Shown: one piece after another, positions 1 to 32,420 of the stretch
Layout of the letters: each line of letters starts with the position of its first letter
How positions within the stretch are numbered: the first letter of the stretch is position 1
Assembly (NCBI GenBank): GCA_963801935.1
Contig: CAWDHA010000035.1
Coordinates: 8,852 to 72,851, forward strand
Length of the DNA: 64,000 nt
Reading direction: 5' to 3'
Source: an uncultured delta proteobacterium
GTDB lineage: Bacteria; Desulfobacterota; Binatia; UBA9968
The notes under the pieces: model-generated
Told to the model about the DNA's origin: nothing
Database searches by the model: none
What the model saw: only the letters and a program-made list of their open reading frames with translations
Translations under genes and position numbers: made by a program

Positions 1-56
1 CAAATGCGCCGCAACTCGGATAACCTTGATGAAGGCGCTTAGCGCGCTCATGCGGA

Positions 57-71
57 GCAAGGACGGTGCCA
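57..71 (-). promoter_or_regulatory. candidate sigma54 (-24/-12) promoter firing leftwards out of the window
   Basis: The minus strand reads TGGCAC-CGTCC-TTGCT, an exact match to TGGCAC-N5-TTGCW. The target gene lies outside the window. Confidence 0.35.
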
Positions 72-87
72 CGGACTCTTGCAGAGC

Positions 88-252
88 GAAACGCGCATAG
101 CGCTAGGCGAAAAGCGCACGCGCCCAGATTTGCAGGCTGCTCAAAAAGATCCAGAGGCGAGGCGCGAGAAAGCGCATGGCGCAGAGAGCAAGGCGCATAG
201 CGTCAGGAGCTAAAACGCTTTGCGCTTAGCGCTTGGCGCTTTGCCAGACAGT
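88..252. repeat. GCGC-rich oligo-repeat hairpin element, copy 1 (family shared with 13226-13300)
   Basis: Runs of GCGCAT(A/G)GCG units are followed by the complementary CGCTTTGCGC units. It shares the exact 13-mer AGCGCATGGCGCA (171-183) and GGCGCATAG (192-200) with the copy at 13.2 kb. Confidence 0.6.
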
Positions 253-318
253 ACGTTGACGCGATATCGATCGAGCGCAACCAAGCCTATGGGTCTTTTT
301 CAGCAGCCTGCCAGCCTG

Positions 319-1176
319 TTAAAACTCGAAGGCAACATCGAGCTTGGCATCCGGCGACGCCAGATGAACACAAACGACCTCTCTGGCTTGGAAGGCGTAC
401 GGCTTGCAGATCGTCTCGTAGACTTCCGGCGGTTCTATGGAGAATTCTAAGCCATTCGTCGACAGCCGCGTGCAAGCGTTACCATTGGCAATGTTGACGA
501 ATTCTTTGCTGGCCTCGAGAGCCAGTTCGTCCGCTACGCTTACGGTTTCATCCAGCATCGTAGAAGCCATCTGCAACATTACCTTGGCAGGCACAGAAAG
601 CAGGCAGTTAAATTCGCCGGCGGCAGCACCGATCTTTTGTGAGAATAGCCAGCGAAACAACCGAACCTTCTCCTTGCCGACTTCGCACTGCTCGATTTTG
701 AGCTCCTGCTTGGCAAAGCGCGTAAACATAATCATCATCAAGTCTGTAAAGGTCTTGACGAGGTCTTTGTTGCGCACTTGATCGAATGCGGCAGCAAGTT
801 CGTAGGCAGCCTTTTTCTCGTCTTTATCGTATTGCTTGAACTCTTTTTCCAAGGTCTCAAGAGTTAAATAGCCCTTTGCCACGAGCACTTCCCCAAGCCA
901 GACGCGATGGCTTAGATCCTGCTGTCTGAGCAATTCATCGACTTGAGCTTGCGTGAGCAGGCCTGAACTAACCGCCAGCTCGCCGAAGCGATAGTTGGTT
1001 TTCTTTTGCAACTCGAGAACTCGTTCGATCTGCCCCGAAGTCAGCCAATTTCTTTCAAGCGCGAGAATTCCCAGCGGTGCTCTCAACGTTTTCTGACTAT
1101 CGAGTCCGGTGAAAAGCTGCTGCGAGGTAATCCTGCCGTTTTCCAAAAGATATTGGCCGAAGAATTTCGAGGTCAT
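319..1176 (-). CDS. MshEN-like (x2) / CheX-domain fusion protein, a putative c-di-GMP-responsive CheY-P phosphatase
   Basis: 285-aa ORF. The N-terminal half holds four tandem 24-residue units with the spacing xxGxxLLxxGxIxxxxLxxxLxxQ: FFGQYLLENGRITSQQLFTGLDSQ, PLGILALERNWLTSGQIERVLELQ, RFGELAVSSGLLTQAQVDELLRQQ and WLGEVLVAKGYLTLETLEKEFKQY. Spacers are 5-6 residues. The C-terminal half has a CheC/CheX-type ExxN motif (EASKEFVNIANGN). Confidence 0.6.
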   Translation of the reverse strand: MTSKFFGQYLLENGRITSQQLFTGLDSQKTLRAPLGILALERNWLTSGQIERVLELQKKTNYRFGELAVSSGLLTQAQVDELLRQQDLSHRVWLGEVLVAKGYLTLETLEKEFKQYDKDEKKAAYELAAAFDQVRNKDLVKTFTDLMMIMFTRFAKQELKIEQCEVGKEKVRLFRWLFSQKIGAAAGEFNCLLSVPAKVMLQMASTMLDETVSVADELALEASKEFVNIANGNACTRLSTNGLEFSIEPPEVYETICKPYAFQAREVVCVHLASPDAKLDVAFEF

Positions 1177-1293
1177 AGAGTCACCCCCGCTTGCTGGCAG
1201 ACGTTGTGCAGTATGGCTAACATTGGATTTTTGGCGAGCGGCTTCCGCAGAAAGCTCTCGTCACTTTTTTTCAAGCAAAGCGACGGCAAAGGG

Positions 1294-1309
1294 TGCAATA
1301 AGCCTGCCA
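1294..1309 (-). promoter_or_regulatory. candidate sigma54 promoter for the MshEN-CheX gene
   Basis: The minus strand reads TGGCAG-GCTTA-TTGCA (GG-N10-GC), about 118 nt upstream of the start at 1176. Confidence 0.45.
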
Positions 1310-1710
1310 TTCAAAGGCGGGCGCCGGCGGCAGCATGGAAGCTCCCTGACAACAGAGAATTTCTTGAATCAACGATAGCGGTTAAAATTTTACGGCAAGT
1401 TGGCCGCCAGAGGGGGGTCCAAATCGGCGGCGCATCGTTCAAATGCCGCGAAAGTCGCGCATCGGCCCGCCGCGCAACTGCAAAAACAAATGCGGAGTCA
1501 CTGTGAGCTGGACGAGAAATTTACAGCATCCTGCCATTTCTTTGACGACAGCCTCGCCGATTGAGACTGCCGCCATGCGGCATTTTAAAATACCGGCCAA
1601 GTTTTGCCGCCTGACAAATTCCATCTATTTATTCTAATAGGGGCCGCTAACTTATAATTTATGGCGTGCCATCTCATTCGCGATTTGGCTTCCCGCCAAG
1701 AGTTTAGCGC

Positions 1711-1726
1711 TGGCACGAGTTTGGCT
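1711..1726 (+). promoter_or_regulatory. candidate sigma54 promoter for the coiled-coil/KaiC-like/CBS operon
   Basis: CTGGCACGAGTTTGGCT matches YTGGCACGrNNNTTGCW at all positions but one, with GG-N10-GC spacing kept. It lies about 70 nt upstream of the TTG start at 1795, which is preceded by GGAG. Confidence 0.5.
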
Positions 1727-1794
1727 TTCTACAATCCGCGATTCCAGGGCAGCGCCCGTGCGCAAATGAAATTTCTCGAACAGGAGTCATCGGA

Positions 1795-4311
1795 TTGTTT
1801 GATCAAACAGACGACCTGGTAGCCAAGCGCGACGACCAGATGCTCGGCGAGAGCAGTGACAACTTGTTCGAACGTCTGGTAACCAGGGCTGAAGCCGACC
1901 TCAGAGTTGCCCAGGCGCTCGCCGCCCGCGAATCACAAAGGGCCGATCAGATCAAACGCTTGGAAACGACCTTGATCGGTCACATCAATAGGCTGCAGCA
2001 GCAAATCCTGGAGAGCCGCGAGGCAGAGCTCAAGAATCTTCGGTCCGAGATCTCGGTCTGTGCCGAGCGCATAACAGGGTTTGAAGGTACGCACAGTACG
2101 GCTGCCGTGAGAAAAGAAATGGCTGAGGAGTTGGGCGATTTGCGAGTGCGATTGACCGAGCGCCAATCTCAACTTGAAAACCGCCATTCGGGATTTGTCC
2201 AGCTGGGCGAATCTTTGAACGCTCATGTGCGCGCATTGGAAGATGAGTTACACGACGAGCTCGATGGCATCCGGACCGCCCAGGCTGAAATGGGCCAGTT
2301 CAAGTTGGCGACCCAGTCGTTGTCGGAGCGGGTTGCGCACGCCGAATCCTCGAGCTCGCGCGGGCGCGCACTGGCGTCTTACAATATCCAGCAACTCGAA
2401 CAGACCAGCAAGAGTCTGAGGAGTGAAATGAGCGCGCTCAACGCGCTGATTATCGAGCTCAATGACAAACAGGCCGAGCGCCGTTTGCCCGACACGTTAC
2501 TCCAGGAAGTGACGCATAATTTCGGCGCCAAGATTGAAGAATTTGAGCATTGGCTACAACAGGAACAACACATTCAACTGGGCCGCGATAGCCGTCTCGG
2601 TGAGCTCGATGCCGGGCTGGCGCTGCTCGCCGAGCGCGTGACAAAAACAGAGTCGCTGGCCCACGAAAGCCATGCGGCCGCTCTGGCCCAGTTAAATTCA
2701 GCGGCGGAGTTGCGCCAATCAACCGGCCGAGAACTAGCGGCTCTGGAAGCGAAACTCAACGACTTATCCTATCCGACGGCGGTCGATAAACTCGCCGAGT
2801 CGCTTGGTGCCCGGGCCGAGGAATGGCAATCCCAAGCAGAGCAAAAGTTCCTGCTGCTCGATAGCCGTGACCTCGAACGGGAAAGAAACGCCCGGGAACT
2901 CGCAGCGAATCTCGCCGCTAAACAGCTGGAACAAGAGGCGCGTACCGACGAAAAGCTCCAAGCCCTGACAAGGAATCATGAGGAACTGGCCGCTCTGCGC
3001 GCGGAAATCGAGCCACTCGCCGAGCGCATCGCCGTGAGCGAGTCTGCGGCACAGAGTGTTCGGGCGCAAACCGACTCGGCCGCCACGCAAACCGAACAAC
3101 TGGAAGATCGCCTAAAGAGCGCTCTGGCCGCGCTCAGCACCGAAGTCGCCCAACTTACCGAGCAACAGCAGGCTCTTAGTCTGGCGCAAGTTGAGCGGCG
3201 TGAGAACGGAACTAAACTCGCCATCGACTTGCTCGAAATACAGCGCCAAATGGCGCGCGAGCGCGATGCTTTCCAGCACTGGGGAAAGGGACTCAGCGAA
3301 TCTCTTGGCGCCGAGCTGAGCTCGACCGGGGCACAGCTTGGCGAGCGCCAAAGCGCGCTCGAAGATCGTTACGCAGGATTGGAACGTAGCCAGGAAACGT
3401 TCAAAGCAAACCTTGATGCGTTAGCAAGCCAACTTAAAGAGCAGCCCGCGCCAGAGCCCGAAGATCGTGAACTCTGGGACAAAATCCGCTCGGAATTGGC
3501 CGCACTCGGCGAGCGCATGAGCGGGCTCGAATCTCGAGTGCGCGAAGCAGATGACCGGGCTAATTTAATGAGCCGAGATACCGAGCACCAGGTCGGCGCA
3601 TTGCGCGGCGATTTGAGCGCGCTGGCAACATCATTTGATCAAAGGCCTCCCCCTTATGAATCGATCATTCACGGCATGGCGGACAAACTCGGTGCTAGAC
3701 TACAAGAACTTGAAGATCAGCTCACCAGGCAATTCAGCCTTTATGAGAAGCGCGACGGCGAACGAGACCAACGAACCGAACAGATGATCGCAACATTCAA
3801 GAGTGAAATCACCGCGCTTAGCGGCAAGCTTATGCAGCAACCGAGCGCCATCGCGCCCGACGATGCGGCGCTCAGCGCCGTAGCGGAGAGCCTGAGCGCG
3901 AAGATCGAAGAGCTGCGCCGGCAAACGGCAGAAAAATTCAACGCGCTCGCGAGCCGCGCCGCCGAAGCTCAAGCATTGACGGAAAGATCAGAGCCGGCGC
4001 GCGAGCGCCTGGCGCATTTAAGCGCCGCTCCCGAGTCATCCGGCGAGATCGCGATTTTCTCCGGTCAACCCGGCGCCGCGCCCGCCGACCTGAGCACGCG
4101 CCCGGTAGCAGCAGCGAAAGGAGCCGGCGACAGCGCCGCCGACGTTCACGGCCAGAGCGAGAAAGAACAGCTGATCAAGCTTGAGGAACGAATGTCCTCG
4201 GAAATCGAGCGCGTGCGGGCAGAGCTCAAGGCGCGGAGCGGTCGCTGGAAAGTCCGGCAAAGCGCAACCCTGAAGCGCTCCGGGCGTTTTTCCCTCGACC
4301 CGGAACTCTAG
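1795..4311 (+). CDS. 838-aa repeat-built coiled-coil protein, function unknown
   Basis: Long ORF with a TTG start and a GGAG RBS. It is E/L/A/Q/R-rich, with no hydrophobic segment. It contains at least 6 copies of a two-part module: xE(S/K)LGA+hEE (AEELGDLRVRL, THNFGAKIEEF, AESLGARAEEW, SESLGAELSS, ADKLGARLQEL, AESLSAKIEEL) followed by LxER+xxxES (LSERVAHAES, LAERVTKTES, LAERIAVSES, LGERMSGLES). Confidence 0.75.
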   Translation: MFDQTDDLVAKRDDQMLGESSDNLFERLVTRAEADLRVAQALAARESQRADQIKRLETTLIGHINRLQQQILESREAELKNLRSEISVCAERITGFEGTHSTAAVRKEMAEELGDLRVRLTERQSQLENRHSGFVQLGESLNAHVRALEDELHDELDGIRTAQAEMGQFKLATQSLSERVAHAESSSSRGRALASYNIQQLEQTSKSLRSEMSALNALIIELNDKQAERRLPDTLLQEVTHNFGAKIEEFEHWLQQEQHIQLGRDSRLGELDAGLALLAERVTKTESLAHESHAAALAQLNSAAELRQSTGRELAALEAKLNDLSYPTAVDKLAESLGARAEEWQSQAEQKFLLLDSRDLERERNARELAANLAAKQLEQEARTDEKLQALTRNHEELAALRAEIEPLAERIAVSESAAQSVRAQTDSAATQTEQLEDRLKSALAALSTEVAQLTEQQQALSLAQVERRENGTKLAIDLLEIQRQMARERDAFQHWGKGLSESLGAELSSTGAQLGERQSALEDRYAGLERSQETFKANLDALASQLKEQPAPEPEDRELWDKIRSELAALGERMSGLESRVREADDRANLMSRDTEHQVGALRGDLSALATSFDQRPPPYESIIHGMADKLGARLQELEDQLTRQFSLYEKRDGERDQRTEQMIATFKSEITALSGKLMQQPSAIAPDDAALSAVAESLSAKIEELRRQTAEKFNALASRAAEAQALTERSEPARERLAHLSAAPESSGEIAIFSGQPGAAPADLSTRPVAAAKGAGDSAADVHGQSEKEQLIKLEERMSSEIERVRAELKARSGRWKVRQSATLKRSGRFSLDPEL

Positions 4312-4314
4312 CAG

Positions 4315-5031
4315 ATGAACGAGACGCGCATACCCACTGGAATTCCCGAATTGGACGCTGTGCTCGGCGGCGGCTTTAGGCGCGGCAAAATTTATTTAGT
4401 CTTGGGCGAGCCCGGCACCGGCAAGACGATTTTCGCTCTGCAATTTCTCTATCAAGCGTTGCAGGACGGAGAAAAAGCGCTCTACGTTGCCATCGACGAA
4501 AAGCCCGCCGATTTAGTAGAACAGGCAAGCTCTCTAGGCTGGAACTTGACCCCGCATATCGAGCGCAAGAGTTTGTTGATCCTCGACGCCTCCGCTCTGA
4601 TCATAGCCCGGGTAAGCGATGTCAGCGCCAAAAACGACCTGCAAAAAACTATCGTCGAACTTAACAACCATATTATCAAAAGCGGTGCGACGCGCGTGGT
4701 GATCGATCCGGTGGGGCCGCTGCTATACGCCGCCGATTCGCCGTCCAAGGCGCAGGATCAGGCGCGCATGCTCATCGCTGCGCTGCAGAAGAACCCGGAA
4801 ACCACGACTCTGGTCACCTCCCAATCACTGGGGCGCAGCAGCCGGGGGATTGAGGAGTATCTGGTCGCGGGTACGATTGTTTTGGAACTAGAACTGGCCA
4901 GCAGCCGTTTCCTGCGCACCTTAACCGTTGAAAAAATGCGCAGCACGCCGCTCAATCCGGCGCAGTATCTGTTTACCATCATTGCCACAAAAGGCATCAC
5001 GATGCAGCTCAGTGGCGAGATTCTGGCATAG
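4315..5031 (+). CDS. single-domain KaiC/RadA/ArlH-like (COG0467-type) RecA-superfamily ATPase
   Basis: The N-terminus IPTGIPELDAVLGGGFRRGKIYLVLGEPGTGKTIFALQF carries a Walker A motif, and RVVIDPV is Walker B-like. The start lies 3 nt after the stop of the coiled-coil gene. Confidence 0.75.
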   Translation: MNETRIPTGIPELDAVLGGGFRRGKIYLVLGEPGTGKTIFALQFLYQALQDGEKALYVAIDEKPADLVEQASSLGWNLTPHIERKSLLILDASALIIARVSDVSAKNDLQKTIVELNNHIIKSGATRVVIDPVGPLLYAADSPSKAQDQARMLIAALQKNPETTTLVTSQSLGRSSRGIEEYLVAGTIVLELELASSRFLRTLTVEKMRSTPLNPAQYLFTIIATKGITMQLSGEILA

Positions 5032-5129
5032 CCGTCCTGACCGAAGGCTGCAAACGATGCTCCGATCTTAGGAACTTCGGTTTGCTGCCGATAGCAACAA
5101 GTAGAAAGCAATCATCGAAAGGGAAACTC

Positions 5130-5602
5130 ATGACAGAAGCGCAACCGGAACATTGTGGAGCTCAAAGGTCGGTGGCGAGTCTACCTGCCAATTTCGCTGA
5201 GGCGCCGCGCTCTGTGGCCGAGCTGATGACGATCGACGTCGTGACCTTGTACGCGCACAGCCTGTTCCGCGACGCGCTCGATCTGTTGGCGCGTAACCCG
5301 TTCCACCATCTGCTCGTCACAGAGATCGACGGCGGTCTGGCGGGGGTGATTTCCGATCGCGATGTGCTGCGCGCCGCCGACACCTATGATGCCGAGACCA
5401 CCCTGGTGGCGGACATTATGACTCCCGAGCCGATGACCCTCAGCGCCGATACACCGCTATCGGCTGCCATTACGATGACTCTCGACTATCACATCAATGC
5501 TTGCCGGTTGTCGATCATGCGGGGAGGGTGCGCGGTATTCTGACGACCACCGACTTGCTGAAGGCGTTCCAAGAGCTGCAACTAGCACTTGAACAACTTT
5601 AG
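5130..5602 (+). CDS. CBS-pair domain protein (apparent frameshift near 5500)
   Basis: CBS-like blocks are present (MTIDVVTL..., GVISDRDVL, IMTPEPMTLSADTPL). After HINA the frame changes: LPVVDHAGRVRGILTTTDLLKAFQELQLALEQL* reads in the +1 frame and ends at TAG 5600-5602. The track ORF is 5082..5543. The ATG at 5130 has an AAGGGAAA RBS. Confidence 0.65.
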
Positions 5603-5624
5603 ATGCCGTCTATTGACGACAGCA

Positions 5625-5657
5625 GACCGAAGACGGACGACCGATCGGTCTTCGGTC
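5625..5657. terminator. hairpin between convergent genes (candidate bidirectional terminator)
   Basis: GACCGAAGAC (5625-5634) and GTCTTCGGTC (5648-5657) form a perfect 10-bp stem between the CBS gene stop (5602) and the kinase stop (5664). No clear U-tract follows. Confidence 0.45.
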
Positions 5658-5663
5658 CGGTCA

Positions 5664-8600
5664 TCAGCCATCGGAACATGATAACCAACGCTGCAAGACT
5701 GCGTGTAGATCCTTTCGGCCGATCGGTTTCGTCACGTAATCGTCCATGCCAGCCGCCAGGCAGCGCTCGCGATCGCCTTGCATGGCGTTGGCGGTCATCG
5801 CGATGATCGGGATGCGGGTGCCGGATTTTTGCTCGCGCTTGCGCACTTCTTGGGTCGCTTGGAAACCGTCCATCTCAGGCATATCGCAGTCCATCAGAAT
5901 GACATCATAGGAAGTCCAAGCGATCGCTTCGAGTGCTTCGACGCCGTTGATCGCGACATCCAACGAATAGCCCAACTTCTCCAGCAGCAGGCTCGCCACC
6001 ATTTGATTGGCCATATTGTCTTCGACCACCAGCACGTGGCCGGCGCGATTATTTTCAGCCGCCGGCGCGGCGCCGGCCGGGTCTTCGCGGCTGGGCGCGG
6101 CCACGCGCTCGGCAGAGCGCCGCATCGCTATGGTAAACCAGAAAACGCTGCCTCTGCCCTCTGTGCTCTCGAGGTCGATCTTGCCACCCATCAGTTCTAT
6201 CATCCGTTTACAGATCGACAGACCCAGTCCCGTGCCACCGAAGCGTCGCGTCGTCGTCGCATCGCCCTGCGTGAACGGCTGAAAAAGTTGCGCTTTGGCA
6301 TCCGCCGATATGCCGATACCGCTGTCTCGGACGGTAAAACGCAGCGCCGATTCTTCACCTTTTTTTTCCTCAACCGCGACCTCGAGCGTGACTTCCCCTT
6401 TCTCGGTAAACTTCACCGCATTGCTCAAAAGATTCAATAAGATTTGTCTGAGCCGGCCGGCATCGCCGACAATGAAGTCCGGCACTTGGGCGGCGACGTT
6501 GAGAGCTATCAGCAGCTTTTTGTTGTGAATCTGAGGCGTCATGATATCGATGACGTCGCGCAGCAGCTCACTCAGTTTGAATTCCGTCGCTTCGATCTCC
6601 AGCTTGTTCGCCTCGATTTTGGAGAAATCCAGTATGTCATTGACAATCGTCAGCAGGCCGGCGCCGGATTGTTTGACCACCTCTACGAGCTTACGCTGAT
6701 GTTCCGATAGATCGTCGTCCAGCAAGGCCCGGGTCAAGCCGATAATACCGTTAAGCGGCGTGCGAATCTCATGGCTCATTGTCGCCAAAAACCGCGACTT
6801 TGCCTCTGCGGCAGCTTCTATTTCCCGGGCCTTTTCCAGGGCCGCATGCTGCTCGCGGATATCCTGGAAGAGTTGAGCATTGTTGATCACCATCGCAGCC
6901 TGCCCGGCGAGCAGGCCGACGAAGTCGGTCTCATCTTTGGTAAACTCCCGCCTGTGGCGCGCCGCGATCATAAGAGTGCCGAGGATGTTGCCCTTCATGA
7001 CGAGCGGCACAATCAGCAGCGATGCCAACTGATTGCGCCGGTAAAAGTCTCGATCAGCACAATCGGGATGGTTGGGCGCGTCGGCTATGATAACCAGTTC
7101 TTTCTTTTCCAGGGTTATGTCAGCGAACGAAGGCTTGCCATTCTCACACAAGGCCGTGAGCTCGCTCCAGGGGATACCCCGACTCACGGCGGGCTCCAGC
7201 CGCCCACTGGCTTTGTTTAACAAGCGAATCACCAGCGCGGTCGAGTAAGGCAAAGCTTGTTCGGTTTTTTCGGCGAGCAACTCCAGGACTTTTTGCAGTT
7301 CAAGGGTCGAGCTCAACGAAAGATTTATATCGTAGAGCGCCTCGATGCGGTTTAAGTTATTTTTCGTCTGCGAGAGCAAAAGCGCCTTCTGAATACCGAC
7401 GCCGATCTGCTGCGCGACGGTTTCCAAAAGCTCTATAATCGACTCGCCAATTTCGGTTTCGCTGCGGCTGGCGAGCTGCAGGAAGCCCAGGACATGCTCG
7501 CCGTCAACGATCGGCACGGACACCGAAGTCTCGGCCCCTTCGTGCTTTAAACTACGGAGCCTATCGCCCTCCTGAATATGGCTGTGGACCACGGTCTTAC
7601 GGCGCTCCATGACGTGAAGATGGCGCTCTTTACCGGCCCTGTCGCCGCGCGCTTTTCTTTCGAGGTTGCGCCCATCGTTATAGCCCCAGGAAGCGATCGG
7701 CGCTAGCCGGTCGGCGGCGGCGGTCGAAAGCAGGATCGTGCCCAGGTCAAATTTGCAGCGCTCGATGCAACAGCGCAAAATCTCGGTCAAGCAGCTTTCC
7801 GGATCCTCGGCGCTCAAGATCACCCGATTGACGTCTTGTAAGAAAATCAGGTTCGCCAAGCTAGCGCGCAGCGCGTCCTCGACCTGTTTGCGCGAGGTAA
7901 TGTCGATTTTGATTCCTCGCAAACCGATGTTAACGCCTTTATCGTTTTTGATAATGCGCACCATATCCCGCAGCCACAAAATCCGGCCGTCGGCGGCCCG
8001 GACTCGGTATTCGAGCGCATAATCGATGCCCAGTTCGGTCATTTTTCTGGATTCACGCAGCACCCGCGCCCGGTCCTCGGTGTGAATCATATTGCTCCAA
8101 AAATGCGGCTCGTTATACCAGCGGCGCAACGGATATCCGAGGATCGCTTCAGCGCCGTGGCTGACAAACGAAAATTTCCAGGAAAAGGCGTTGGTCTCCC
8201 AGATGATCGCCTCCAGAGACTCGACCAGCTCGCGCTGTCTTTGTTCCGCGAGGGCTCGATCCGCCTCCGCCGCCGCCCGCACCGTGAGCTCACGGCCGAG
8301 TTGGGCGTTGGCCGTTTCGAGCTGGCTGGTGCGCTGCGACACTTTGTCTTCAAGTTCCTTGTTGAGCAGCCGCACGCGCGCCTCGGCGAGCTGGGTCTCG
8401 CGCTGGCTATTCTGCAATGCCGCGGCCATCCGATTGATCTCTTGCCCCAGGGCGCCCAACTCATCGTAGCGGTTCTCTGCTACCCGCACGTTCAGGTCGC
8501 CGGCGCCAAGGCGGCGCGCCACATCCACGATATGAATGATCGGCCGGATAAAACTTCGCGCCAGAAGAAATGACAGCAAAGCGCCGGCGCTCAGAGAAAT

Positions 8601-9116
8601 CATGGTCATGTAAAGGATACCGCGCTGTCCGTCGCTGATGATCGCTTGAATGTGACTGAGAGAAAATCGGACATGCAAGTAGCCTATGGCCTTCTCGCCA
8701 CCCAAGCGGATGGGTCCGCCGACGTCCAGGTTGGCGCCGTGCATGGTACTAATCCACGCATCGCCTGCGGCAAGCATGGCGCGCTTGAACGAGACCCTTT
8801 GCGCGCTCGCGATTTCGCTGTCTCCCGGACCGCTAACCAGACTCTCGCCATGGGCGTCGCTGATGTTGATGTATTCGATATTCGGATTGCCGCGCGCGCT
8901 TTCCAGCGAGCGCTTGAGTTGCACCATGTCGAGAAAATAGATGGGATTGACCAGGGACTCGGCGAATAACTTGCCCGCTTGTAACGACTCTTTTGAAAAC
9001 TCGGCCTCCAAATACTGTTTTTGATGGTACACGGAATAGGCCGCGATGCTGCCGGCGACTAACAACGCCAGACTGAAAGTAAACAGCAGAAGTTTTAAGC
9101 GGATGCTGAATTTCAT
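5664..9116 (-). CDS. hybrid sensor histidine kinase (TM-sensor-TM, HAMP, PAS, 2x GAF, HisKA, HATPase_c, REC)
   Basis: 1150-aa ORF. H-box [15 protein letters not shown] boxes [10 protein letters not shown] and [12 protein letters not shown]-terminal receiver VLVVEDN...[12 protein letters not shown]...VTKPI. HAMP-like [10 protein letters not shown]...[12 protein letters not shown]. Confidence 0.9.
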
Positions 9117-9212
9117 AGGATTGATGGCGCCAACTTGAGCCGGCGCATCGACCGATTAGCCGGCGCGCTCGGCCCGCTGCCCGCAATAACAGGCGAGCTC
9201 CCGGGCTGCGCT

Positions 9213-9605
9213 TCAGCTTGGCTCGCCGTCCATCGAAAGAAGTTCGGCGACGGATTTGGCTCTCAGTTTTGCCAATACCGCGTTGACGGATTTGAAATCG
9301 TTTTCCAGTTGCCCCACCTGCTGGCCGAGCTCCATCATCCGTCCGGCGCGCGATTCGAGCTCGAGCTTTTTTGCCAGATTGGAAAACGCCGTGGCGCCCA
9401 GATTGGCGCTGCTTGACTTGAGGGTGTGGGCGGCGCGCGTGAAGTCAGCCTGGTTGCCGATCTCGAACGCCAGGCGGAGCGTCGCCAGGCAACGGCACGC
9501 TTCGGCGCAGTAGACATCGACCAGTCTTAAAAAAAAATCAGCGCCGCCTTCGCGTACCCAGTGCCGGGCTTTTTCCATGATTTCTTCTCGGCTCGCTTCA
9601 GACAC
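9213..9605 (-). CDS. Hpt (histidine phosphotransfer) domain protein
   Basis: 130-aa ORF with AAHTLKSSSANLGA, the phospho-accepting His context of Hpt domains. It lies directly upstream of the hybrid kinase. Confidence 0.8.
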   Translation of the reverse strand: MSEASREEIMEKARHWVREGGADFFLRLVDVYCAEACRCLATLRLAFEIGNQADFTRAAHTLKSSSANLGATAFSNLAKKLELESRAGRMMELGQQVGQLENDFKSVNAVLAKLRAKSVAELLSMDGEPS

Positions 9606-9638
9606 AGGGTGAACCTCCGGTCTTTTCTCCTACGCCGG

Positions 9639-11117
9639 TCAAATTTGCACAGATTCAAATACTTCGATTTCAGCGAGTCTGAGCCTGTGAAAATCGTTTA
9701 TCATCTCGGCGTCTATGCGCCGCCCTCGACTCATCGGCACGGCTGCGCCGCAGTCAAGGGCGCGGGCGAGCACCATCCCTTCACAAATATCCGCGATCGC
9801 GACATTGCGGACCGGCAGACCGTCGGTGCGCACAGCCACGGAAAAGTAGATCCCCTCACCGAAGGAGAAGGTCATCTCGAAGTCCTGGCGCAGTTCCACA
9901 GAGCCGTCGAGACCGGTTCTGTCTTCGACGCAAGGAAGTCCGAGGATGAACTCCTTGCCTTCGTCACCGAGACTCTCGTTGACGCGGCCGCCGATGATAT
10001 TGAGCGCTTCCGCCAGGGTGCTCCGAACAAGGTCCATGCTGGTTGCCGCTTGATGTTCATCCATTTGCAGCATCAGCATAGCCATCGCGACAACGCAGGC
10101 CCGATCGCAGCGAAATTCGATTTTGATCCGTTTGCTTTCCTTGAATCCGAGAAGCGCGATCGCCGCGCAGGTGCTCGGTTTTGCGGCAGCGAGCTCCGCT
10201 GGCTGCGGCTCGAGCGAAACTTCAGTGGACATCATCATGCTGAATACCTGCTCGGTGGCGCAGATCAGAGGTTGGCGCAGGCTTTCTGAATTATCGAACG
10301 GCGCCCTATCGGCGATGATTCCGCCCAGGCAGCGCTCAAACGACTCGGCAAAAATTTGTGGAACAAACGTGCGTTTCACGCGGCCGTCGTACAACGACTC
10401 CTCGGCTGCGTTTGCTTCATCATCCGCATCTACGGCATATATCTTGATTGCCGCGAGGCTGGGAATAGTGCGCAGCTTGGCAACCATGCGATCGCGGCCA
10501 AACAAACCGATCTCTGAGCCTGCGAGGAGAACCTGAGGAGAGTGCTTTATGCTCGCGGCGATAGCCTGAGCGCCATTGGTCGCCTCCAACACATTAAATC
10601 GCGCTGCCAATGTCGTTGCTAGGAAGTGGCGAAAGTTAGCATCGCCGTCGACCACCAGAATAACCTCTCGACCGGGTTCAACAACGGCGTCCTGCCCGGA
10701 GATTAGCACGCTCGCTGGGACGAACAGGCGCGACTTGAGTTCTCCGAGCTTGCTGGCTAAGCGCTTGACCAACCGATTCGCATTGTAAGGTTTGATAATG
10801 TAGTCAAATATTTTCAGTTCCAGCAGAGATCGGATGGTATCGGAGTCGGTATTCGCTGAAATGATGATGACCGGCAGTTGCGCGGTTTTGGACCATTGGC
10901 GAATTTCAGCTAGCACCTCGATGCCGCTTAGAAACGGCATCATGACATCGAGAAAGAGCAAATCGAAATTGCCGTCGGTGAGTCTATTTAGCCCGTCGAG
11001 ACCGTCGGTGGCGATTTCGACATCGCAACCGAGCTTTCTTATAAGTAAGTAAGCGAGCGTCTCGCCGTCCGTTTGACAGTCATCGATCACCAGCGTTTTA
11101 AGTGCGTTATCCTTCAT
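9639..11117 (-). CDS. multidomain response regulator: REC, degenerate REC-like, CheX-like phosphatase domain and a C-terminal extension
   Basis: N-terminal receiver (LVIDDCQ...LLFLDVMMPFLSG...IKPY). A second REC-like segment follows (ILVVDGDANFRHF...). The CheC/CheX active-site consensus S-x3-E-x2-N is present (STLAEALNIIGG). Confidence 0.75.
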   Translation of the reverse strand: MKDNALKTLVIDDCQTDGETLAYLLIRKLGCDVEIATDGLDGLNRLTDGNFDLLFLDVMMPFLSGIEVLAEIRQWSKTAQLPVIIISANTDSDTIRSLLELKIFDYIIKPYNANRLVKRLASKLGELKSRLFVPASVLISGQDAVVEPGREVILVVDGDANFRHFLATTLAARFNVLEATNGAQAIAASIKHSPQVLLAGSEIGLFGRDRMVAKLRTIPSLAAIKIYAVDADDEANAAEESLYDGRVKRTFVPQIFAESFERCLGGIIADRAPFDNSESLRQPLICATEQVFSMMMSTEVSLEPQPAELAAAKPSTCAAIALLGFKESKRIKIEFRCDRACVVAMAMLMLQMDEHQAATSMDLVRSTLAEALNIIGGRVNESLGDEGKEFILGLPCVEDRTGLDGSVELRQDFEMTFSFGEGIYFSVAVRTDGLPVRNVAIADICEGMVLARALDCGAAVPMSRGRRIDAEMINDFHRLRLAEIEVFESVQI

Positions 11118-12141: not shown

Positions 12142-12635
12142 CTACGCGGCGCTGCTTACGGCTCGCTTTGCCATGCGCGATTCGAGCTTGTCTTCGCCGA
12201 GGAGCATGACGACCAACGGTTGGTCACGGTAAGAAAACGCCGCCTCGCTGAGCAGCACGTGGCGCGGAAACATCAGCTTGAAGTCCTGACCTTTGATCAG
12301 GGTCGGCAGCGACAGGTGGGTCGAGCCGTTGAGCGCGCCCTTGACGTTGTCGCTGATAATATTCACGAGCTCGCACATGGCGTCATGGACATCTTCAAGC
12401 GGCGCCTCGGTCGACGCGATATCGAACATGATCTTTGCGGCAAGGCGCGCGGTTGCCATCGAGCAGTAGATCACCACCGCAAGTGCCAGTCGCCGCTGAT
12501 TTGGGCGCAGGCGGCGATCAGATCTTCGATGTTCTCTACGCCCACCGGCGCCGGCGCGGGCTCGAGATCTTCGCCGAGAACCAAGCGCCAGGTTTCTTCG
12601 GTGATTTGCCGTAGTTCGGTCTCTGCGAATTTCAT
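12142..12635 (-). CDS. CheX-like CheY-P phosphatase (apparent frameshift near 12480)
   Basis: The C-terminal 111-aa ORF carries D-x3-E-x2-N (DAMCELVNIISDN). The N-terminal part MKFAETELRQITEETWRLVLGEDLEP...ISGDWHL reads in another frame from ATG 12635, which is preceded by GGAGAGG. Confidence 0.65.
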
Positions 12636-13200
12636 CAGCCTCTCCTATGCCGCCGTGGCTTTGATGTAATATGAGCTTTTGTCCAGCGCGACCCGTTTAA
12701 GGCGTCGTCGACTCCCATGGGCGTCTCGGCGCCGCCCAGGAAGAGACATCCGTCGGGTTTCATGAGCTTGTGAACTCGCGTGAAAATCGCCTTTTTGGTT
12801 TCGGTGTCGAAATAGATCAGCACGTTGCGCATAAAGATAATGTCCATCGGTGCCAGCGCCGGCCAGGGTTGGGCCAGGTTGAGCTCCTTGAATTCGATCA
12901 TGCGGGGCAAATCATCTTTGATTTTCCATTCGGTGCCGACTTTCCGGAAATATTTTGATTGCCAGCGGCGCCGGCAAACCGCGATTGATCTCGAGCTGCG
13001 AATAGCAGCCTTCGCCGCAGCGCCCGAGCATCTCCTTGGACACAATTGTCAGGAAACCTCCGTCCTCGTATTTCCGGGGCTGCGCACACACGGGTAAAAT
13101 TTGCCGTTTGCATTTTTGCGTCACTGAGCAACCAACAATCATGCCAGAGATCGTGTGAGGAAAGCTCGGCAGAGCGCTCGCAAGAACCGCCGGTTATTTG
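12635..13200 (-). pseudogene. cheR: CheR-type MCP methyltransferase, fragmented or degenerate (several frame changes, N-terminus not recoverable)
   Basis: CheR-like blocks lie in different frames: GEGCYSQLEINRGLPAPLAIK, then YFRKVGTEWKIKDDLPRMIEFKELNL...DIIFMRNVLIYFD...KPDGCLFLGG. A more CheR-like C-terminus (LKRVALDKSSYYIKATAA*) reads in yet another frame and stops at 12645-12647. Confidence 0.5.
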
Positions 13201-13225: not shown

Positions 13226-13300
13226 GAGCGCATGGCGCAAAGCGCATGGCGCATAGGATTCTCGCTTTGCGCTTTGCACTTTGCGCTCTGCGCTTTTCCT
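13226..13300. repeat. GCGC-rich oligo-repeat hairpin element, copy 2
   Basis: GCGCAAAGCGCA (13235-13246) pairs with TGCGCTTTGCAC (13268-13279) at 11 of 12 positions. It shares AGCGCATGGCGCA and GGCGCATAG with 171-200. Confidence 0.6.
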
Positions 13301-15616: not shown

Positions 15617-16258
15617 CGGCGCCGTCGCCTTCCTTAATAATCTTCTCGTGGCTTTTCACTTTGAACTTAATAGACAAATCGAGGGTCTTTTCTTCGATCT
15701 TAGCTATGATGCATTGCACTTTTTCCAGGCGCTGGCGCAGCACGTCTTGAAACGACAGATAACTCATCAAAGCCAGCAAGCTCTGGTGGTTCCTATCAAT
15801 GATCTCTTGAAGCTGGGAGACACTGGCGTCATTCAGCGCCGCCGCCCCCGAGTTCAGGAGCCGGCGCGCCTGGATTGATCCGATTGCATCTCTTAAATTA
15901 CTTTCCAGACCGAGTTAAACTCGCTTTCGGCTTCTCGGTTAATCTCGGCAACGCCATCGGCGGCTTTCGGAATGAAATCCTTGGAGCCGTCGGCCGTCGA
16001 CGACAATGAATGAAGGGTCTTGCGCACCGCCTCTAGATAGGCCGCCAACTGGCCCAGTTCGCCTTGGAAATGCTGTTGAAATTGTTGCTCGAACTCTCCT
16101 TCCGAGAGCGCTTTTGCCATCTCAACCAATTCACCTACTGAACAAGTCACGTTGTGCTCCTTTCCCAGGATGATGCCCTTGGGCCGGCCTGAGCTGACGA
16201 CGTCGCCAATCACCGCCACGTTTAACCTATCGGAAAAGCCTGTACCTGCTTTAGGCAA
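15617..16258 (-). CDS. CheZ-like CheY-P phosphatase (apparent frameshift near 15895)
   Basis: The N-terminal ORF (15893..16258, TTG start) continues in another frame as [10 protein letters not shown]...[31 protein letters not shown]. The FQDxxxQ+xxKV block has the catalytic D-x3-Q spacing of CheZ. Confidence 0.5.
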
Positions 16259-16404: not shown

Positions 16405-17694
16405 TTACCGCTTCAGGTTCGATACCTCTTCCAAAAGCGTGTCGGTGACCGTGATCGTGCGCGACGACGCCTGGAAGGCCCTCTGAGTTGTAACCATTTT
16501 GACGAACTCCGTGGCCAAGTCTACCGTCGAGAGTTCAAGCGAGCCGGATAACACGGTGCCGAAGCTGCCGTTGGCCGGCGTTCCCGCTAAACGCTGCCCC
16601 GACTCGGGAGACTCGACAAAGAGCGAATTACCCACATGCGTAAGGCCTTCAGGGCTGGCGAAGTCGGCGAGCGCGACTCTGAAAAGCGGCTGAGTGCCGC
16701 CGGTGGTGAACTGACCCGTAATGATGCCATCGGTGCCGATGTTGATGCCGCGCAGAACACCCGATGGCGAGCCATTCTGGTTCAATACACTGACCGATGA
16801 TGCCTGGGCGTACTGGGTAGTGCCAAGAAAGTTTTGATTCGCGGCCGTGATCGTTTGCGCGCTGGCGCCATTGCCCCAGGCGACGGCGCCGATGTTGTTT
16901 ATGGTCGTCGCACCCGTATTCAAGGTGCCGTCGGCATTAAATCCGAGCGTGCCGTTACTGACCTGCTGCAACTGGCCTGCCGTGCCACCGGTAATCTCCC
17001 CGCCGTCGGCGACGACACGATAATCCCAAGTGTTCGCCGCGGTCTTACGAAAGAGATAGGTCAGATCATGTCCCTGACCGAGGGAGTCGAAGACCGTTGC
17101 CACAGTGGAAAAATTAGCGCCGGCGAACCATGCAGCAGGTAAGCCCGTTGGGGGAACACCTCCAGGAAACGTCGGTGTCGGTGCCGTGGATGTCGCATCT
17201 AGATTTGCCGCCAAGGTGGTAACGCTGGTGGCAGTCGGCGAGACCACCGCCTGGCTGATGATGACGTCCACCAGGCCGGTGTTGATAGTCCCGGTGCTGT
17301 TGAGACCAAAGCCCTGAACGCGTAGACCGGCGGGGTTGACGAGATTACCCTCGTCATCAAGTGTGAATTGCCCGGCCCGGCTATAAAAACTCGCTTGCGC
17401 CGAAGCTGCGTCTCTAAGCATGAAAAGCCCGCGGCCCTGGATCGCCATATCCGTCGGGCTGTTGGTGGTTTCGACGCCGCCCTGAACGAATGCCCGGTGC
17501 GCGTCGGCGAGGCGCGAGCCCAGACCCACCTTGGTGCCGCCGATGTCCGCGCTCAAAAGGTCGAAAAACACCGCCCGGCTCGACTTGAAGCCGATGGTGT
17601 TCACGTTGGCGATGTTATCGCCGATGATGTTCATGGCGTTGCCGTTAGCGTTGATGCCGCTAACGCCCGCGAAAAGTGCTCCTGTCAGTGCCAT
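16405..17694 (-). CDS. flgE: flagellar hook protein FlgE (paralog 1)
   Basis: The N-terminus GVSGINANGNAMNIIGDNIANVNTIGFK and the C-terminus LELSTVDLATEFVKMVTTQRAFQASSR are the conserved rod/hook termini. 429 aa. Confidence 0.85.
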   Translation of the reverse strand: MALTGALFAGVSGINANGNAMNIIGDNIANVNTIGFKSSRAVFFDLLSADIGGTKVGLGSRLADAHRAFVQGGVETTNSPTDMAIQGRGLFMLRDAASAQASFYSRAGQFTLDDEGNLVNPAGLRVQGFGLNSTGTINTGLVDVIISQAVVSPTATSVTTLAANLDATSTAPTPTFPGGVPPTGLPAAWFAGANFSTVATVFDSLGQGHDLTYLFRKTAANTWDYRVVADGGEITGGTAGQLQQVSNGTLGFNADGTLNTGATTINNIGAVAWGNGASAQTITAANQNFLGTTQYAQASSVSVLNQNGSPSGVLRGINIGTDGIITGQFTTGGTQPLFRVALADFASPEGLTHVGNSLFVESPESGQRLAGTPANGSFGTVLSGSLELSTVDLATEFVKMVTTQRAFQASSRTITVTDTLLEEVSNLKR

Positions 17695-17699
17695 CTACC

Positions 17700-17790
17700 C
17701 TCCTGGTTTCTTTAGTACGTTTCTCGTTTCTGGTTTCTGGTTTCTGGTTGAACTTCTTCCTTCTGCCTATTGCCTGTTACCTGTTGCCTG
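17700..17790. repeat. low-complexity oligo-repeat spacer between the two flgE paralogs
   Basis: (GTTTCTG)n-like run gtttctcgtttctggtttctggtttctgg, then ctgcctattgcctgttacctgttgcctgg. The CTGCCTGTTGCC unit recurs at 36866-36895. Confidence 0.5.
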
Positions 17791-17793
17791 GCT

Positions 17794-19053
17794 TCACGCC
17801 TTCAACTGCGCCGCCACGCTATACATCTCATCTGCCGTCGTGATCACCCGGGAGTTCATCTGAAAGGCGCGTTGTGACATCAGCATCGTGACGAATTCCG
17901 CGGCGAGATCTACCGTCGATAGCTCCAAGGTTCCGGACACGATGTCGCCACGGCCACCGCTCCCCGCCAGCCCCAACTGGGCCGCGCCCGATTCGGCGCT
18001 GGCTAAAAAAAGCGTATCGCCGAACGGCTCGAGCCCATCGGCACTTGTGAAACGCGCTAACTGGACGGTGTCGATGAGCTGCGAGTTGCCATTGCTGTAA
18101 AATCCTCGCAGGTTGCCCCTGCCATCGATATCGATGGATATCAAGTCGCCCGGCGCCCGGCCATTTTGCACCAGGCTGTTGAGCGTTGACGCCCCGGCAT
18201 ACTGCGTGGAGTTAGTGAAGCCCGGCGTCACGCTCTGACTTGCCGGGACGGCGCCCTGAGCGTTGGCTGACCAGGCGATAGGACCAACAGTGTTGATGAT
18301 TGAAGATCCGGTATTCAGCTTGCCGGCATTGGAAAAATCGAGCAAACCGTTACCGACCTCTTGCAAATCCCCCGCCGTACCCCCGACCTCCGCGCCATTG
18401 GCAACAACACGATATTCCCATAGGCCCGGATTGGCGGCAGTGGGCGTCCTGCGGAACAGATAAGTCAGATCATGGCCCTGGCCAAGAGAATCGAATACCG
18501 TCGCGACGGTGGAAAAATTGGCGGCGCCGGACCACGTTGCCGGCAGGGCCGAACCGCCTGGAAACCCTGTAGCAGGGGTTGTCGAAGCAGCATCCAAATT
18601 GACTGCCTGGCCGAGTGTCGTCGTCGCCTGCGCCGGCTGGGTTTGTTGTCCCGCCAGCGAAATATTTCCCGCCGCCCCCTGGAGAAAATAGCCCGCAGGA
18701 TTAACCAGGTTACTGGCCTCGTCGGGGTTAAACTCGCCGGCGCGGCTGTAGTAGCTCGCGCCTGCGCCGTCGCTCAGAACAAAAAAACCGTTGCCGCCGA
18801 TGGCGAGATCGGTCGCATTGGTCGTCGATTCCAACGCGCCCTGGGTGAAGACCGGGTCCGAATCGACCACAAACACGCCATGGCCGGTTTCGATCTCGCC
18901 ATACGCAGTTGTCATGAGATCCGCAAAATCGACGCGCGACGCTTTGAAACCGGCGGTGTTGAGATTGGCGATATTGTGCCCCACCGTTGCCATCGAAACA
19001 CCAAAGGCGTCCAATGCTGTGCTTGCCGTATACATGGATCCAGTGATTGACAT
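17794..19053 (-). CDS. flgE: flagellar hook protein FlgE (paralog 2)
   Basis: The N-terminus VGHNIANLNTAGFKASR and the C-terminus LELSTVDLAAEFVTMLMSQRAFQMNSR match hook termini. It shares the identical 24-aa block ANFSTVATVFDSLGQGHDLTYLFR with paralog 1. Confidence 0.8.
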   Translation of the reverse strand: MSITGSMYTASTALDAFGVSMATVGHNIANLNTAGFKASRVDFADLMTTAYGEIETGHGVFVVDSDPVFTQGALESTTNATDLAIGGNGFFVLSDGAGASYYSRAGEFNPDEASNLVNPAGYFLQGAAGNISLAGQQTQPAQATTTLGQAVNLDAASTTPATGFPGGSALPATWSGAANFSTVATVFDSLGQGHDLTYLFRRTPTAANPGLWEYRVVANGAEVGGTAGDLQEVGNGLLDFSNAGKLNTGSSIINTVGPIAWSANAQGAVPASQSVTPGFTNSTQYAGASTLNSLVQNGRAPGDLISIDIDGRGNLRGFYSNGNSQLIDTVQLARFTSADGLEPFGDTLFLASAESGAAQLGLAGSGGRGDIVSGTLELSTVDLAAEFVTMLMSQRAFQMNSRVITTADEMYSVAAQLKA

Positions 19054-25520: not shown

Positions 25521-26375
25521 CTAGCGGCCGCCCGCCGCCGCCGCCTGCGCCCGCGCCTTGTTGGCATCTTCCTGCAGCCACCCGCGAATGATACGCGTGG
25601 TGGCATCGTGATAGTCTCGGGCGATCTGGGTGAGCTGCTCTTTGCGCGGGTCTTCCACCATGATGACTTTTTGCGCCACTACCGCGACCTCTTCCTGCAC
25701 CTGGGCGCTCGTCGCCGTCGTTATCGCCGTTTCGCTGACCGGCGTTGATTGCGCCACCGCTGGCTTCGAGCGGCGTTTCATCAACAGAAAAATCACGACG
25801 CCAACGATCAGCACCGCGCCGGCGGCGACGCCGAGGCCGATCGGAGTCCGGACCATGTCTTTGAGATTGGGCGGCGCAATAGGCGGCGCCGGCAGCGCCG
25901 GTTGAATTTTGAACGGCACATTGGCGACTTCGATCTGATCGCCCCGCGCCGCGTCAAAGCCGACGGCGCGTTTGACCATACCTGTGATGACTTCGATCTC
26001 GTCTTTGGCGCGCGCGATATACTTATCTTTCTGATAAGTGCCGTCAACCAGCACGGCGACGGAAAGCTTCTGCACCTGACCGCGTGGTTCCATGACGCGG
26101 CTCGTGGTCCGGCCGACTTCGTAGGTCACCATTTCGCTGCTGCGTTTAGTAGCCGTCTCAGCGGCCGTTCGCCCGGCCTCGCCGCCGGGAATGTTAGACT
26201 GGACGCCCGGCACGCCGCCGCCTTTAAGACCGGAGTCATCCAGCGCCTGGCGCTGGCTGCGCACGACCCGGTTCTGCGGGTCGAATTGCTCCTTGGTCAT
26301 TTGCGTCTCTTGCGGATTGATCTGGACATTGGCGCGCACCACGACTTTGCCCGTTCCTAACACCGGGTCGAGCAT
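25521..26375 (-). CDS. fliF: flagellar M-ring protein FliF, C-terminal fragment (gene split by a frameshift near 26376-26410; full span 25521..27141)
   Basis: MLDPVLGTGKVVVRANVQI... plus a C-terminal TM segment and the FliG-binding tail. The same frame upstream reads EQEIERRIET, joining the upstream fragment. Confidence 0.85.
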   Translation of the reverse strand: MLDPVLGTGKVVVRANVQINPQETQMTKEQFDPQNRVVRSQRQALDDSGLKGGGVPGVQSNIPGGEAGRTAAETATKRSSEMVTYEVGRTTSRVMEPRGQVQKLSVAVLVDGTYQKDKYIARAKDEIEVITGMVKRAVGFDAARGDQIEVANVPFKIQPALPAPPIAPPNLKDMVRTPIGLGVAAGAVLIVGVVIFLLMKRRSKPAVAQSTPVSETAITTATSAQVQEEVAVVAQKVIMVEDPRKEQLTQIARDYHDATTRIIRGWLQEDANKARAQAAAAGGR

Positions 26376-26403
26376 GGTTTCGATGCGCCGTTCGATTTCC
26401 TGT

Positions 26404-29881: not shown

Positions 29882-29885
29882 GGGT

Positions 29886-31150: not shown

Positions 31151-32352
<1,202 letters not shown>

Positions 32353-32404
32353 AGGCGCTCCTTTACTGATTTCGATTTCCAAGAAATTGATCGTTTGCCG
32401 TTTT

Positions 32405-32420
32405 AGCACGCTCCATGCCA
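32405..32420 (-). promoter_or_regulatory. candidate sigma54 promoter upstream of the receiver-less activator gene
   Basis: The minus strand reads TGGCAT-GGAGC-GTGCT (GG-N10-GC), about 55-70 nt upstream of ATG 32352. Confidence 0.4.

Follow-up and report, generated by a model that had tools for sequence, protein, structure and literature searches.

A stretch of 64,000 nucleotides (nt) from contig CAWDHA010000035.1 of an uncultured delta proteobacterium of the Binatia (GenBank assembly GCA_963801935.1) is referred to here as the window. Close to its left end, one gene on the minus strand (hereafter the target gene) encodes a protein in which four short repeated motifs, related to the cyclic di-GMP (c-di-GMP) binding motifs of MshE, precede a domain of the CheX family. 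A preliminary description, made by a model from the letters of the DNA, had presented this protein as a fusion of two MshEN-like modules to a CheX-type phosphatase domain, a layout that is supported here by profile searches, a predicted structure and Foldseek comparisons. The features of the gene and its product are as follows.

319..1176, minus strand: target gene, one intact open reading frame (ORF) of 285 amino acids (aa) plus stop, with four MshEN_N-type motifs, a linker helix and a CheX domain
1093..1164, minus strand: unit 1, aa 5-28, FFGQYLLENGRITSQQLFTGLDSQ; position 1 is aromatic, not Arg, and Arg stands at position 11
1006..1077, minus strand: unit 2, aa 34-57, PLGILALERNWLTSGQIERVLELQ; position 1 is Pro, and the turn Gly, present in most relatives, is Asn
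919..990, minus strand: unit 3, aa 63-86, RFGELAVSSGLLTQAQVDELLRQQ; the sole unit that passes the published relaxed MshEN motif
829..900, minus strand: unit 4, aa 93-116, WLGEVLVAKGYLTLETLEKEFKQY; the closing Gln is Tyr, and a 6-residue spacer precedes the unit
775..828, minus strand: linker, aa 117-134, of variable length among family members, extending helix 106-132 from unit 4 toward the CheX domain
322..774, minus strand: CheX-fold domain, aa 135-285, recognised by Pfam profiles, the structure model and Foldseek
493..516, minus strand: active-site motif E221-x3-E225-x2-N228, placed by alignment to CheX structures and by family conservation

Domain layout of the fusion protein

The N-terminal array was recognised most clearly by NF053729 ('cyclic di-GMP-binding domain, MshE-related'), an NCBIfam profile of 53 positions with a cutoff of 38 bits. 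The whole protein scored 81.1 bits (E 3.6e-23) in three stretches, of which aa 34-86 was the best, and isolated pairs of units scored 42.7 bits (units 1-2), 45.3 bits (units 2-3) and 37.4 bits (units 3-4). Because each adjacent pair matches the profile on its own, the array is uniform rather than composed of two clearly separate modules. A phmmer search aligned aa 31-86 to residues 6-61 of Vibrio cholerae MshE, known from its c-di-GMP complex (5HTL), at 37% identity, and GSPII domains of Thermus PilF also aligned to the array. G36 and G65 are the counterparts of G11 and G40 in MshE. The T2SSE_N profile of Pfam gave no match in the target protein even at E 10, so that of the profile matches expected from the preliminary description those to an MshE-related model and to Pfam CheX (34.9 bits) were obtained and that to T2SSE_N was not. 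This miss is no evidence against the motifs, since the T2SSE_N model spans the larger MshEN domain and the protein is devoid of the MshEN_C part. Four other Pfam families (FumaraseC_C, DUF4388, DUF512 and Abp2) appeared below their cutoffs and recurred on the helical repeats of relatives; they were set aside as side effects of the repeats.

When the units are read against the published motif, RLGxx(L)(V/I)xxG(I/F)(L/V)xxxxLxxxLxxQ (PMC5013675), their internal spacing fits it, as had been proposed. Gly at position 3 and hydrophobic residues at positions 17 and 21 are present in all four units, the turn Gly and the Gln at position 24 in three of four, and the Arg at position 1 in a single one, unit 3, in agreement with the earlier remark that unit 1 starts with an aromatic residue and unit 2 with Pro. 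The four tandem 24-residue units of the preliminary description were thus recovered, but not their reported end at residue 134: the array stops at aa 116, and aa 117-134 form the linker helix. The units are joined by KTLRA (5 aa), KKTNY (5 aa) and DLSHRV (6 aa). The lengths given earlier for the first two spacers hold, while the statement that both lie within modules is correct for KKTNY only if units 2 and 3 form a pair. Conservation was assessed in 130 aligned sequences of plain (MshEN)2-CheX architecture. Across this family, successive units are spaced by exactly 29 residues at all three junctions; the window protein has this 24+5 arrangement between units 1-2 and 2-3, and its subfamily carries one extra residue at the third junction (24+6 in the window versus 24+5 in 129/130 family sequences), followed by a linker to CheX of variable length.

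The structure was predicted with AlphaFold2 (AF2) from a 20-sequence alignment, and the best model reached a mean predicted local distance difference test (pLDDT) score of 76.5. In this model, each unit consists of a short helix, a turn and a longer helix, and helix 106-132 spans unit 4 and runs into the linker. Foldseek placed 57 model columns on 5HTL_A at a root-mean-square deviation of 1.4 A and on 8PFA_A at 1.8 A, with probability 1.00; the weak E-values of these matches (0.26-0.35) are attributable to the shortness of the aligned stretch.

The C-terminal half matched the Pfam profiles CheX (PF13690, 34.9 bits; gathering cutoff 27) and CheC (PF04509, 24.1 bits; gathering cutoff 22). In the Foldseek comparison, the C-terminal 150 residues of the model matched 3h2d, 3iic, 6vpw, 1squ, 3hm4, 1xko and 3hzh at TMt 0.64-0.79, the best CheX structure being 3h2d (TMt 0.79, E 6.5e-10), while CheC, FliY and FliM matched more weakly than the CheX structures. 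The CheC/CheX-type E-x3-E-x2-N motif noticed earlier in this half was found at E221, E225 and N228. E225 and N228 align with the E and N of the TEVGN segment of Borrelia CheX (3HZH), as well as with the E-x2-N of Shewanella and Vibrio CheX, and are conserved as Glu in 128/130 and Asn in 126/130 of the architecture-sharing sequences; the first motif position, E221 in the window protein, is D in 104/130. The E-x2-N pair is reportedly the catalytic pair of the CheC/CheX family, within a motif of the form (D/S)-x3-E-x2-N. From its sequence and modelled fold, the protein is predicted to be a CheX-class phosphatase acting on phosphorylated CheY (CheY-P).

Family, gene order and probable loss of the che operon

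A word-indexed search returned 249 relatives, among which no identical sequence was found. The best 120 of these were nearly all 283-285 aa in length, 60-83% identical to the target protein and named CheX where named at all, and they came from metagenome-assembled genomes (MAGs) labelled Binatia, Deltaproteobacteria, Methylomirabilota and similar. Among species-representative genomes, it is mainly Candidatus Binatia and soil MAGs labelled 'uncultured delta proteobacterium' that carry the close family. A HMMER search of 1.84 billion cluster representatives yielded 2604 matches at E 1e-3 and 790 at E 1e-10, and most of the best 150 were 275-300 aa long and aligned over both halves. The layout is common to at least 129 clusters at 50% identity, and distant members reach Candidatus Sericytochromatia. 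Variant architectures include a receiver (REC) domain placed in front, REC-(MshEN)2-CheX (425-435 aa), or behind, (MshEN)2-CheX-REC (417-426 aa), and an extension to (MshEN)2-CheX-PAS-histidine kinase (700 aa); the fusion-bearing proteins are P0125, P0139, P0159, P0193, P0200, P0218 and P0185.

The preliminary description had regarded this domain combination as new, which it is not. The architecture '(MshEN_N)2 - CheX' was catalogued in 2016 for Deltaproteobacteria and Firmicutes, with Geobacter lovleyi Glov_2742 as the example (Wang et al., 2016; PMC5013675, Suppl. Table 4), and the four motifs of that protein are printed in Supplementary Fig. 3c of the same study (Nat Commun 7:12481). The family is large, and annotation pipelines routinely name its members CheX. 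By BLASTP, the window protein is colinear with the printed N-terminal 133 residues of Glov_2742 (ACD96455), with 31% identity over 120 aa, one gap and E 3e-18. By sequence, it is a Binatia-type member of the architecture catalogued in 2016, and appears to be a fresh example of one that was predicted and listed rather than a novel design.

Gene order and gene fusion link the family to CheY. In metagenome loci, cheA-cheW-MCP-cheR-cheB-cheY (MCP, methyl-accepting chemotaxis protein) is followed by the target orthologue, whose start overlaps the stop of cheY by 4 bp according to the gene coordinates of metagenome loci L001-L006; fliM-fliN, motAB and flagellar export genes come next, or unrelated genes in another group of these loci. 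Among genome loci, cheB and cheY lie directly upstream of the orthologue in 17 of 22. Because of this gene order and the REC fusions, CheY-P is a likely substrate of the family. Of the earlier proposal that the protein couples c-di-GMP sensing to CheY-P dephosphorylation, the CheY-P side is thus strengthened, whereas c-di-GMP binding is an inference.

The window itself departs from this gene order in a manner that the preliminary description had passed over: of the cognate cheY only a truncated copy is present, and no che operon lies upstream. An intact cheY or che operon is absent directly upstream of the target gene, where tblastn finds only a remnant of cheY. The features on either side of the gene are listed below.

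1173..1277, minus strand: cheY remnant, with its stop overlapping the target ATG as in relatives
1294..1309, minus strand: sigma-54-type -24/-12 element, TGGCAGGCTTATTGCA, with GG-N10-GC spacing
1795..4311, plus strand: divergent 838-aa gene, coiled-coil by eye, the other flank of the missing che operon
56..71, minus strand: second sigma-54-type element, TGGCACCGTCCTTGCT, near-perfect, downstream of the target gene

The remnant comprises the last 34 codons of cheY (1277..1176), which match residues 95-128 of the L005 CheY at 65% identity (E 8e-10), and DNA homology to all che-operon loci ends at about 1278. On the other flank, the 838-aa gene is homologous to a 963-aa gene that faces the che operon in locus L004 (36% over 498 aa). 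With this homologue on one side and the cheY remnant and target gene on the other, both flanks are syntenic with L004, and a comparison of window positions 1173-1794 with L004 positions 1521-9900 indicates that about 8 kb of che genes and three quarters of cheY are gone. Since a remnant of cheY persists, the event points to a deletion here rather than an insertion elsewhere, and it looks like a deletion of about 8 kb, a size taken from the L004 stretch, removed the che operon. Loss at this spot seems to recur. In locus L021, the orthologue (3001-3834) is intact-looking, ends at the contig edge and stands, as in the window, beside a kaiC-like neighbour without a che operon; in locus L025, the orthologue (1974-2990) is cut at its 5' end, with unit 1 and most of unit 2 gone, at a junction with a homologue of the 838-aa gene.

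The 838-aa protein belongs to an operon that also encodes a KaiC-like ATPase and a CBS protein (1795-5543, plus strand), divergent to the locus. Homologues of at least one of these three genes also adjoin the locus in L004 (1-1520), L021 (972-2439) and L025 (57-1793).

The proposal of a sigma-54-type promoter at 1294-1309, upstream of the target gene, is reasonable in view of its GG-N10-GC spacing and the enrichment of the pattern: TGGCA-N6-TTGCW occurs four times in the window versus 0.30 expected, a number that none of 100 shuffles reached. All four occurrences lie on the minus strand, which is that of the flagellar genes, and two sigma-54 activator genes are located within the flagellar cluster. 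The site at 1309..1294 sits 17 nt past the breakpoint and 486 nt from the divergent gene, a distance matched by the TGGCA-N6-TTGCG site that precedes the che operon in L004 (473 nt); the two sites align to each other. The matching distance and alignment suggest that the deletion left the target gene under the old che promoter, and the gene looks to be placed about 120 nt downstream of that original sigma-54 promoter. A G-rich stretch lies 5' of the target ATG, and an Rfam scan of window positions 1-2000 matched no family, and hence no riboswitch, apart from a single sub-threshold chance match to a snoRNA model.

On the downstream side, when the target gene-fliM intergenic regions of five relatives are aligned, no conserved block is longer than the element at 71..56. 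As the block lies ahead of fliM in these relatives, the start of fliM is probably located a short way past the window's left edge. The same intergenic region (35-245) and another at 13228-13293 contain clusters of GCGC-N3-GCGC with 7-nt periodicity (e.g., GCGCATAGCGC), the first of which is flanked by a 34-nt inverted repeat (125-158 / 285-318). The clusters could belong to a small repeat element or, lying ahead of the fliM promoter, could bind an activator.

Further features of interest lie in the remainder of the window.

9639-11117, minus strand: second CheX-domain protein, 492 aa
11260-12036 (plus), 9213-9605 (minus) and 5664-9116 (minus): listed neighbours of the 492-aa protein
16405-19053, minus strand: two tandem flgE-like hook genes, 429 and 419 aa, opening a flagellar cluster that extends to about 32.8 kb
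25521-27141, 28638-30004, 31151-32784, 40222-41225, 12635-13045, 15893-16258 and 43608-44522: seemingly split or truncated genes

The 492-aa protein has an N-terminal receiver, a second receiver-like segment by eye and an E-A-L-N motif, carries no MshEN units, and adjoins a PilZ-domain protein, an Hpt protein and a large hybrid histidine kinase. This cluster is a possible second c-di-GMP/CheY-P node in the region. Pfam scans of the other large ORFs of the window (about 60 of 63) revealed one PilZ protein and no GGDEF, EAL or HD-GYP domain. The seemingly split or truncated genes are fliF (in two frames), two sigma-54 activators parted from their receiver or helix-turn-helix portions, a solute-binding protein (two ORFs), fragments of CheR (136 aa) and HAMP, and a racemase from which most of the N-domain is missing. 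They would be accounted for by either indel errors in the assembly or pseudogenes.

Proposed signalling mechanism and alternatives

Four 24-residue helix-turn-helix motifs would be enough for two four-helix modules. In the proposed mechanism, the array would bind c-di-GMP and the long helix would relay the ligand signal to the catalytic or dimer interface of the CheX domain, which would hydrolyse the aspartyl-phosphate of CheY-P by means of E225 and N228. The ligand would in this way set the lifetime of CheY-P and, hence, the frequency of flagellar switching. In relatives, translation of the gene is coupled to that of cheY, with which it closes the che operon just ahead of fliMN. As a weak guess, the ligand may activate the phosphatase. 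c-di-GMP turns on MshE and NfrB, and YcgR and MapZ, other c-di-GMP effectors, lower switching. We consider it somewhat probable that all parts of this account hold jointly: a CheX-class CheY-P phosphatase, a c-di-GMP-binding array with transmission through the helix, and the deletion of the che operon.

Several features of the array favour ligand binding. In MshE, the backbone at Gly position 3 contacts guanine, while the Arg contributes by stacking rather than by hydrogen bonding (PMC5013675). Among the 130 family sequences, 109-125 retain this Gly in any given unit, position 2 is conserved as hydrophobic, and 106-120 retain the Gln at position 24 of units 1-3. The fixed spacing of 29 residues at three junctions argues for selection on the array. 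There is also a precedent in chemotaxis, as the MshEN_N of the Aeromonas veronii CheA binds c-di-GMP with a KD of 2.6 uM (PMC5013675, Suppl. Table 6).

Other observations weigh against binding, and many of them feed the main rival explanation, in which the array is a degenerate MshEN relic that binds no nucleotide and serves as a rigid scaffold for dimerisation or for docking to CheY, the switch complex or the receptor array, so that the protein would be a constitutive CheX with a targeting domain. The relaxed motif, a PHI-BLAST motif that Wang et al. applied for genome counts, is passed in the window protein by unit 3 alone, no pair of units passes it fully, and half of the family (64/130 sequences) is without any passing unit. 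Position 1 of units 1 to 4 is occupied in the family by F/Y, K/P/R, R/K and Y/F/L, respectively, so that in the first and the fourth unit an aromatic residue replaces Arg. In unit 2, position 21, part of the hydrophobic cluster, is mostly N or H in relatives, and the closing Gln of unit 4 is replaced by F or Y across the family. The Arg at position 11 of unit 1 coincides with the position of I19R, one of the changes that Wang et al. (2016; PMC5013675) list for the non-binder XpsE; the same authors caution that substitutions in many MshEN domains have probably abolished binding. The strict 29-residue periodicity would suit a structural solenoid as well.

Further points bear on the mechanism rather than on the relic explanation in particular. 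The registers (1,2)+(3,4) and (2,3) give close profile scores and have equally fixed spacers, so that neither pairing of units is favoured, and only one of the five AF2 models is confident, the four others lying near 50 mean pLDDT. The proteins tested by isothermal titration calorimetry by Wang et al. (PMC5013675, Suppl. Table 6) included no (MshEN_N)2-CheX member. While the survey of this architecture proposed in the preliminary description found it to be common and catalogued, literature searches for an experimental study of any MshEN-CheX protein, on either ligand binding or phosphatase activity, returned none.

The relic explanation is nevertheless rather unlikely. Gly at position 3 and a hydrophobic residue at position 2 have been kept in all four units despite divergence to about 30% identity, the closing Gln is kept in units 1-3 (though only there), and all three unit pairs score at or near the NF053729 cutoff. 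Moreover, since the Arg of MshE acts by stacking, an aromatic residue could stand in for it. c-di-GMP binding by the array is plausible but not assured. It is tentatively suggested that the periodic array of 4 x 29 residues is a distinct MshEN derivative that binds a cyclic dinucleotide in a non-canonical manner, with aromatic stacking in place of the MshE Arg, and that it directly switches the fused CheX. If this is true, the protein would be the first demonstrated case of a CheY-P phosphatase that a second messenger gates with no adaptor protein in between.

A different objection concerns this particular copy, which might be no more than a functionless leftover from the deletion of the che operon, or the product of a junction that is itself an assembly artefact. 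The truncated cheY lies directly upstream, and the window contains many split genes (fliF, two sigma-54 activators, a solute-binding protein, and the cheR and HAMP fragments). The L025 orthologue is 5'-truncated beside the same neighbour gene. While the window protein keeps every invariant residue of its subfamily, it carries a different residue at 6 of the 112 columns with a conservation of 95% or more, versus a median of 1 in 118 relatives. From the truncated cheY, the conserved-column departures and the split neighbours together, it follows that this copy may be under relaxed constraint or that the assembly may be error-prone, and both possibilities count against the proposed mechanism as applied to the window. 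Such a leftover or artefact is nonetheless improbable: the reading frame of 285 codons has no interruption, neither the catalytic residues nor any of the four units has been lost, the substitutions number no more than six and, by eye, mostly exchange similar residues, and a good sigma-54 site stands ahead of the gene. Because the L021 orthologue is also found without a che operon, the stand-alone arrangement appears to recur.

Weakest is the proposal that the array binds another ligand (e.g., 3'3'-cGAMP, c-di-AMP or a linear dinucleotide) so that a different messenger gates the phosphatase. In its favour, the motif departures (an aromatic position 1 in the first and fourth units, and N/H in unit 2 at position 21) are conserved rather than random, and Geobacter, the source of the published example, uses cGAMP signalling. 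However, none of the evidence obtained here points toward another ligand, and it is c-di-GMP-bound MshE and PilF that the array matches best in profile and structure, which makes the proposal very improbable. The non-binding scaffold is the main rival, with another ligand or a dead copy less likely. If the array does switch the fused CheX in the non-canonical manner suggested above, survival of the gene after loss of its che operon would suggest that the protein can act on CheY proteins encoded elsewhere.

Comparison with known systems

c-di-GMP input to chemotaxis is known mainly through separate adaptors such as PilZ proteins, and in Vibrio two 2026 studies have such adaptors acting upstream of CheX. 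If true, an MshEN-type sensor built into CheX itself would represent the most direct wiring possible. This wiring was predicted from sequence in 2016, and the family, being large, highly conserved and small in protein size (285 aa), offers a good test case. To that prediction, the window adds a well-conserved subfamily from soil bacteria (Binatia), evidence from gene order and gene fusion that the partner is CheY, and a natural case of a gene outliving the apparent deletion of its che operon.

The closest published counterpart is Glov_2742, which shares with the target protein four successive 24-residue motifs starting from residue 4-5 with KFFGQ(F/Y)L, followed by a CheX domain. The window subfamily differs from it in the extra residue of the third spacer and the Arg at motif position 11 of unit 1, and the window copy differs in having no upstream che operon.

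The CheX proteins of Thermotoga maritima (1XKO/1SQU) and Borrelia burgdorferi (3HZH, with CheY3-BeF3) have the fold found in the C-terminal 150 aa of the target protein (TMt 0.64-0.76) and, like it, a single E-x2-N motif on a long helix. Unlike the target, stand-alone CheX proteins of about 150 aa are without a sensor domain, and identity to them is 16-21%. The motif of the target opens with E221, whereas that of most relatives opens with D.

The MshEN domain of V. cholerae MshE (5HTL) and, in Thermus PilF, the GSPII-B domain (8PFA) have in common with the array the pairs of 24-residue motifs, the 5-residue spacer and the helix-turn-helix form of the units. In contrast to these proteins, the target has neither an MshEN_C subdomain nor an ATPase, carries four periodic motifs rather than two and has the position-1 Arg in unit 3 only.

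In Vibrio, c-di-GMP signalling has been tied to CheX and to flagellar switching frequency by studies of PlzC in V. cholerae (PMC12799141) and of PlzD suppressors in V. vulnificus (PMC12887009), with motility control by PlzC reported to be separable from its c-di-GMP binding (PMC12799141). In the PlzC/PlzD systems, the sensor is a separate PilZ protein and CheX stands alone, whereas in the target protein the putative sensor is fused to CheX itself.

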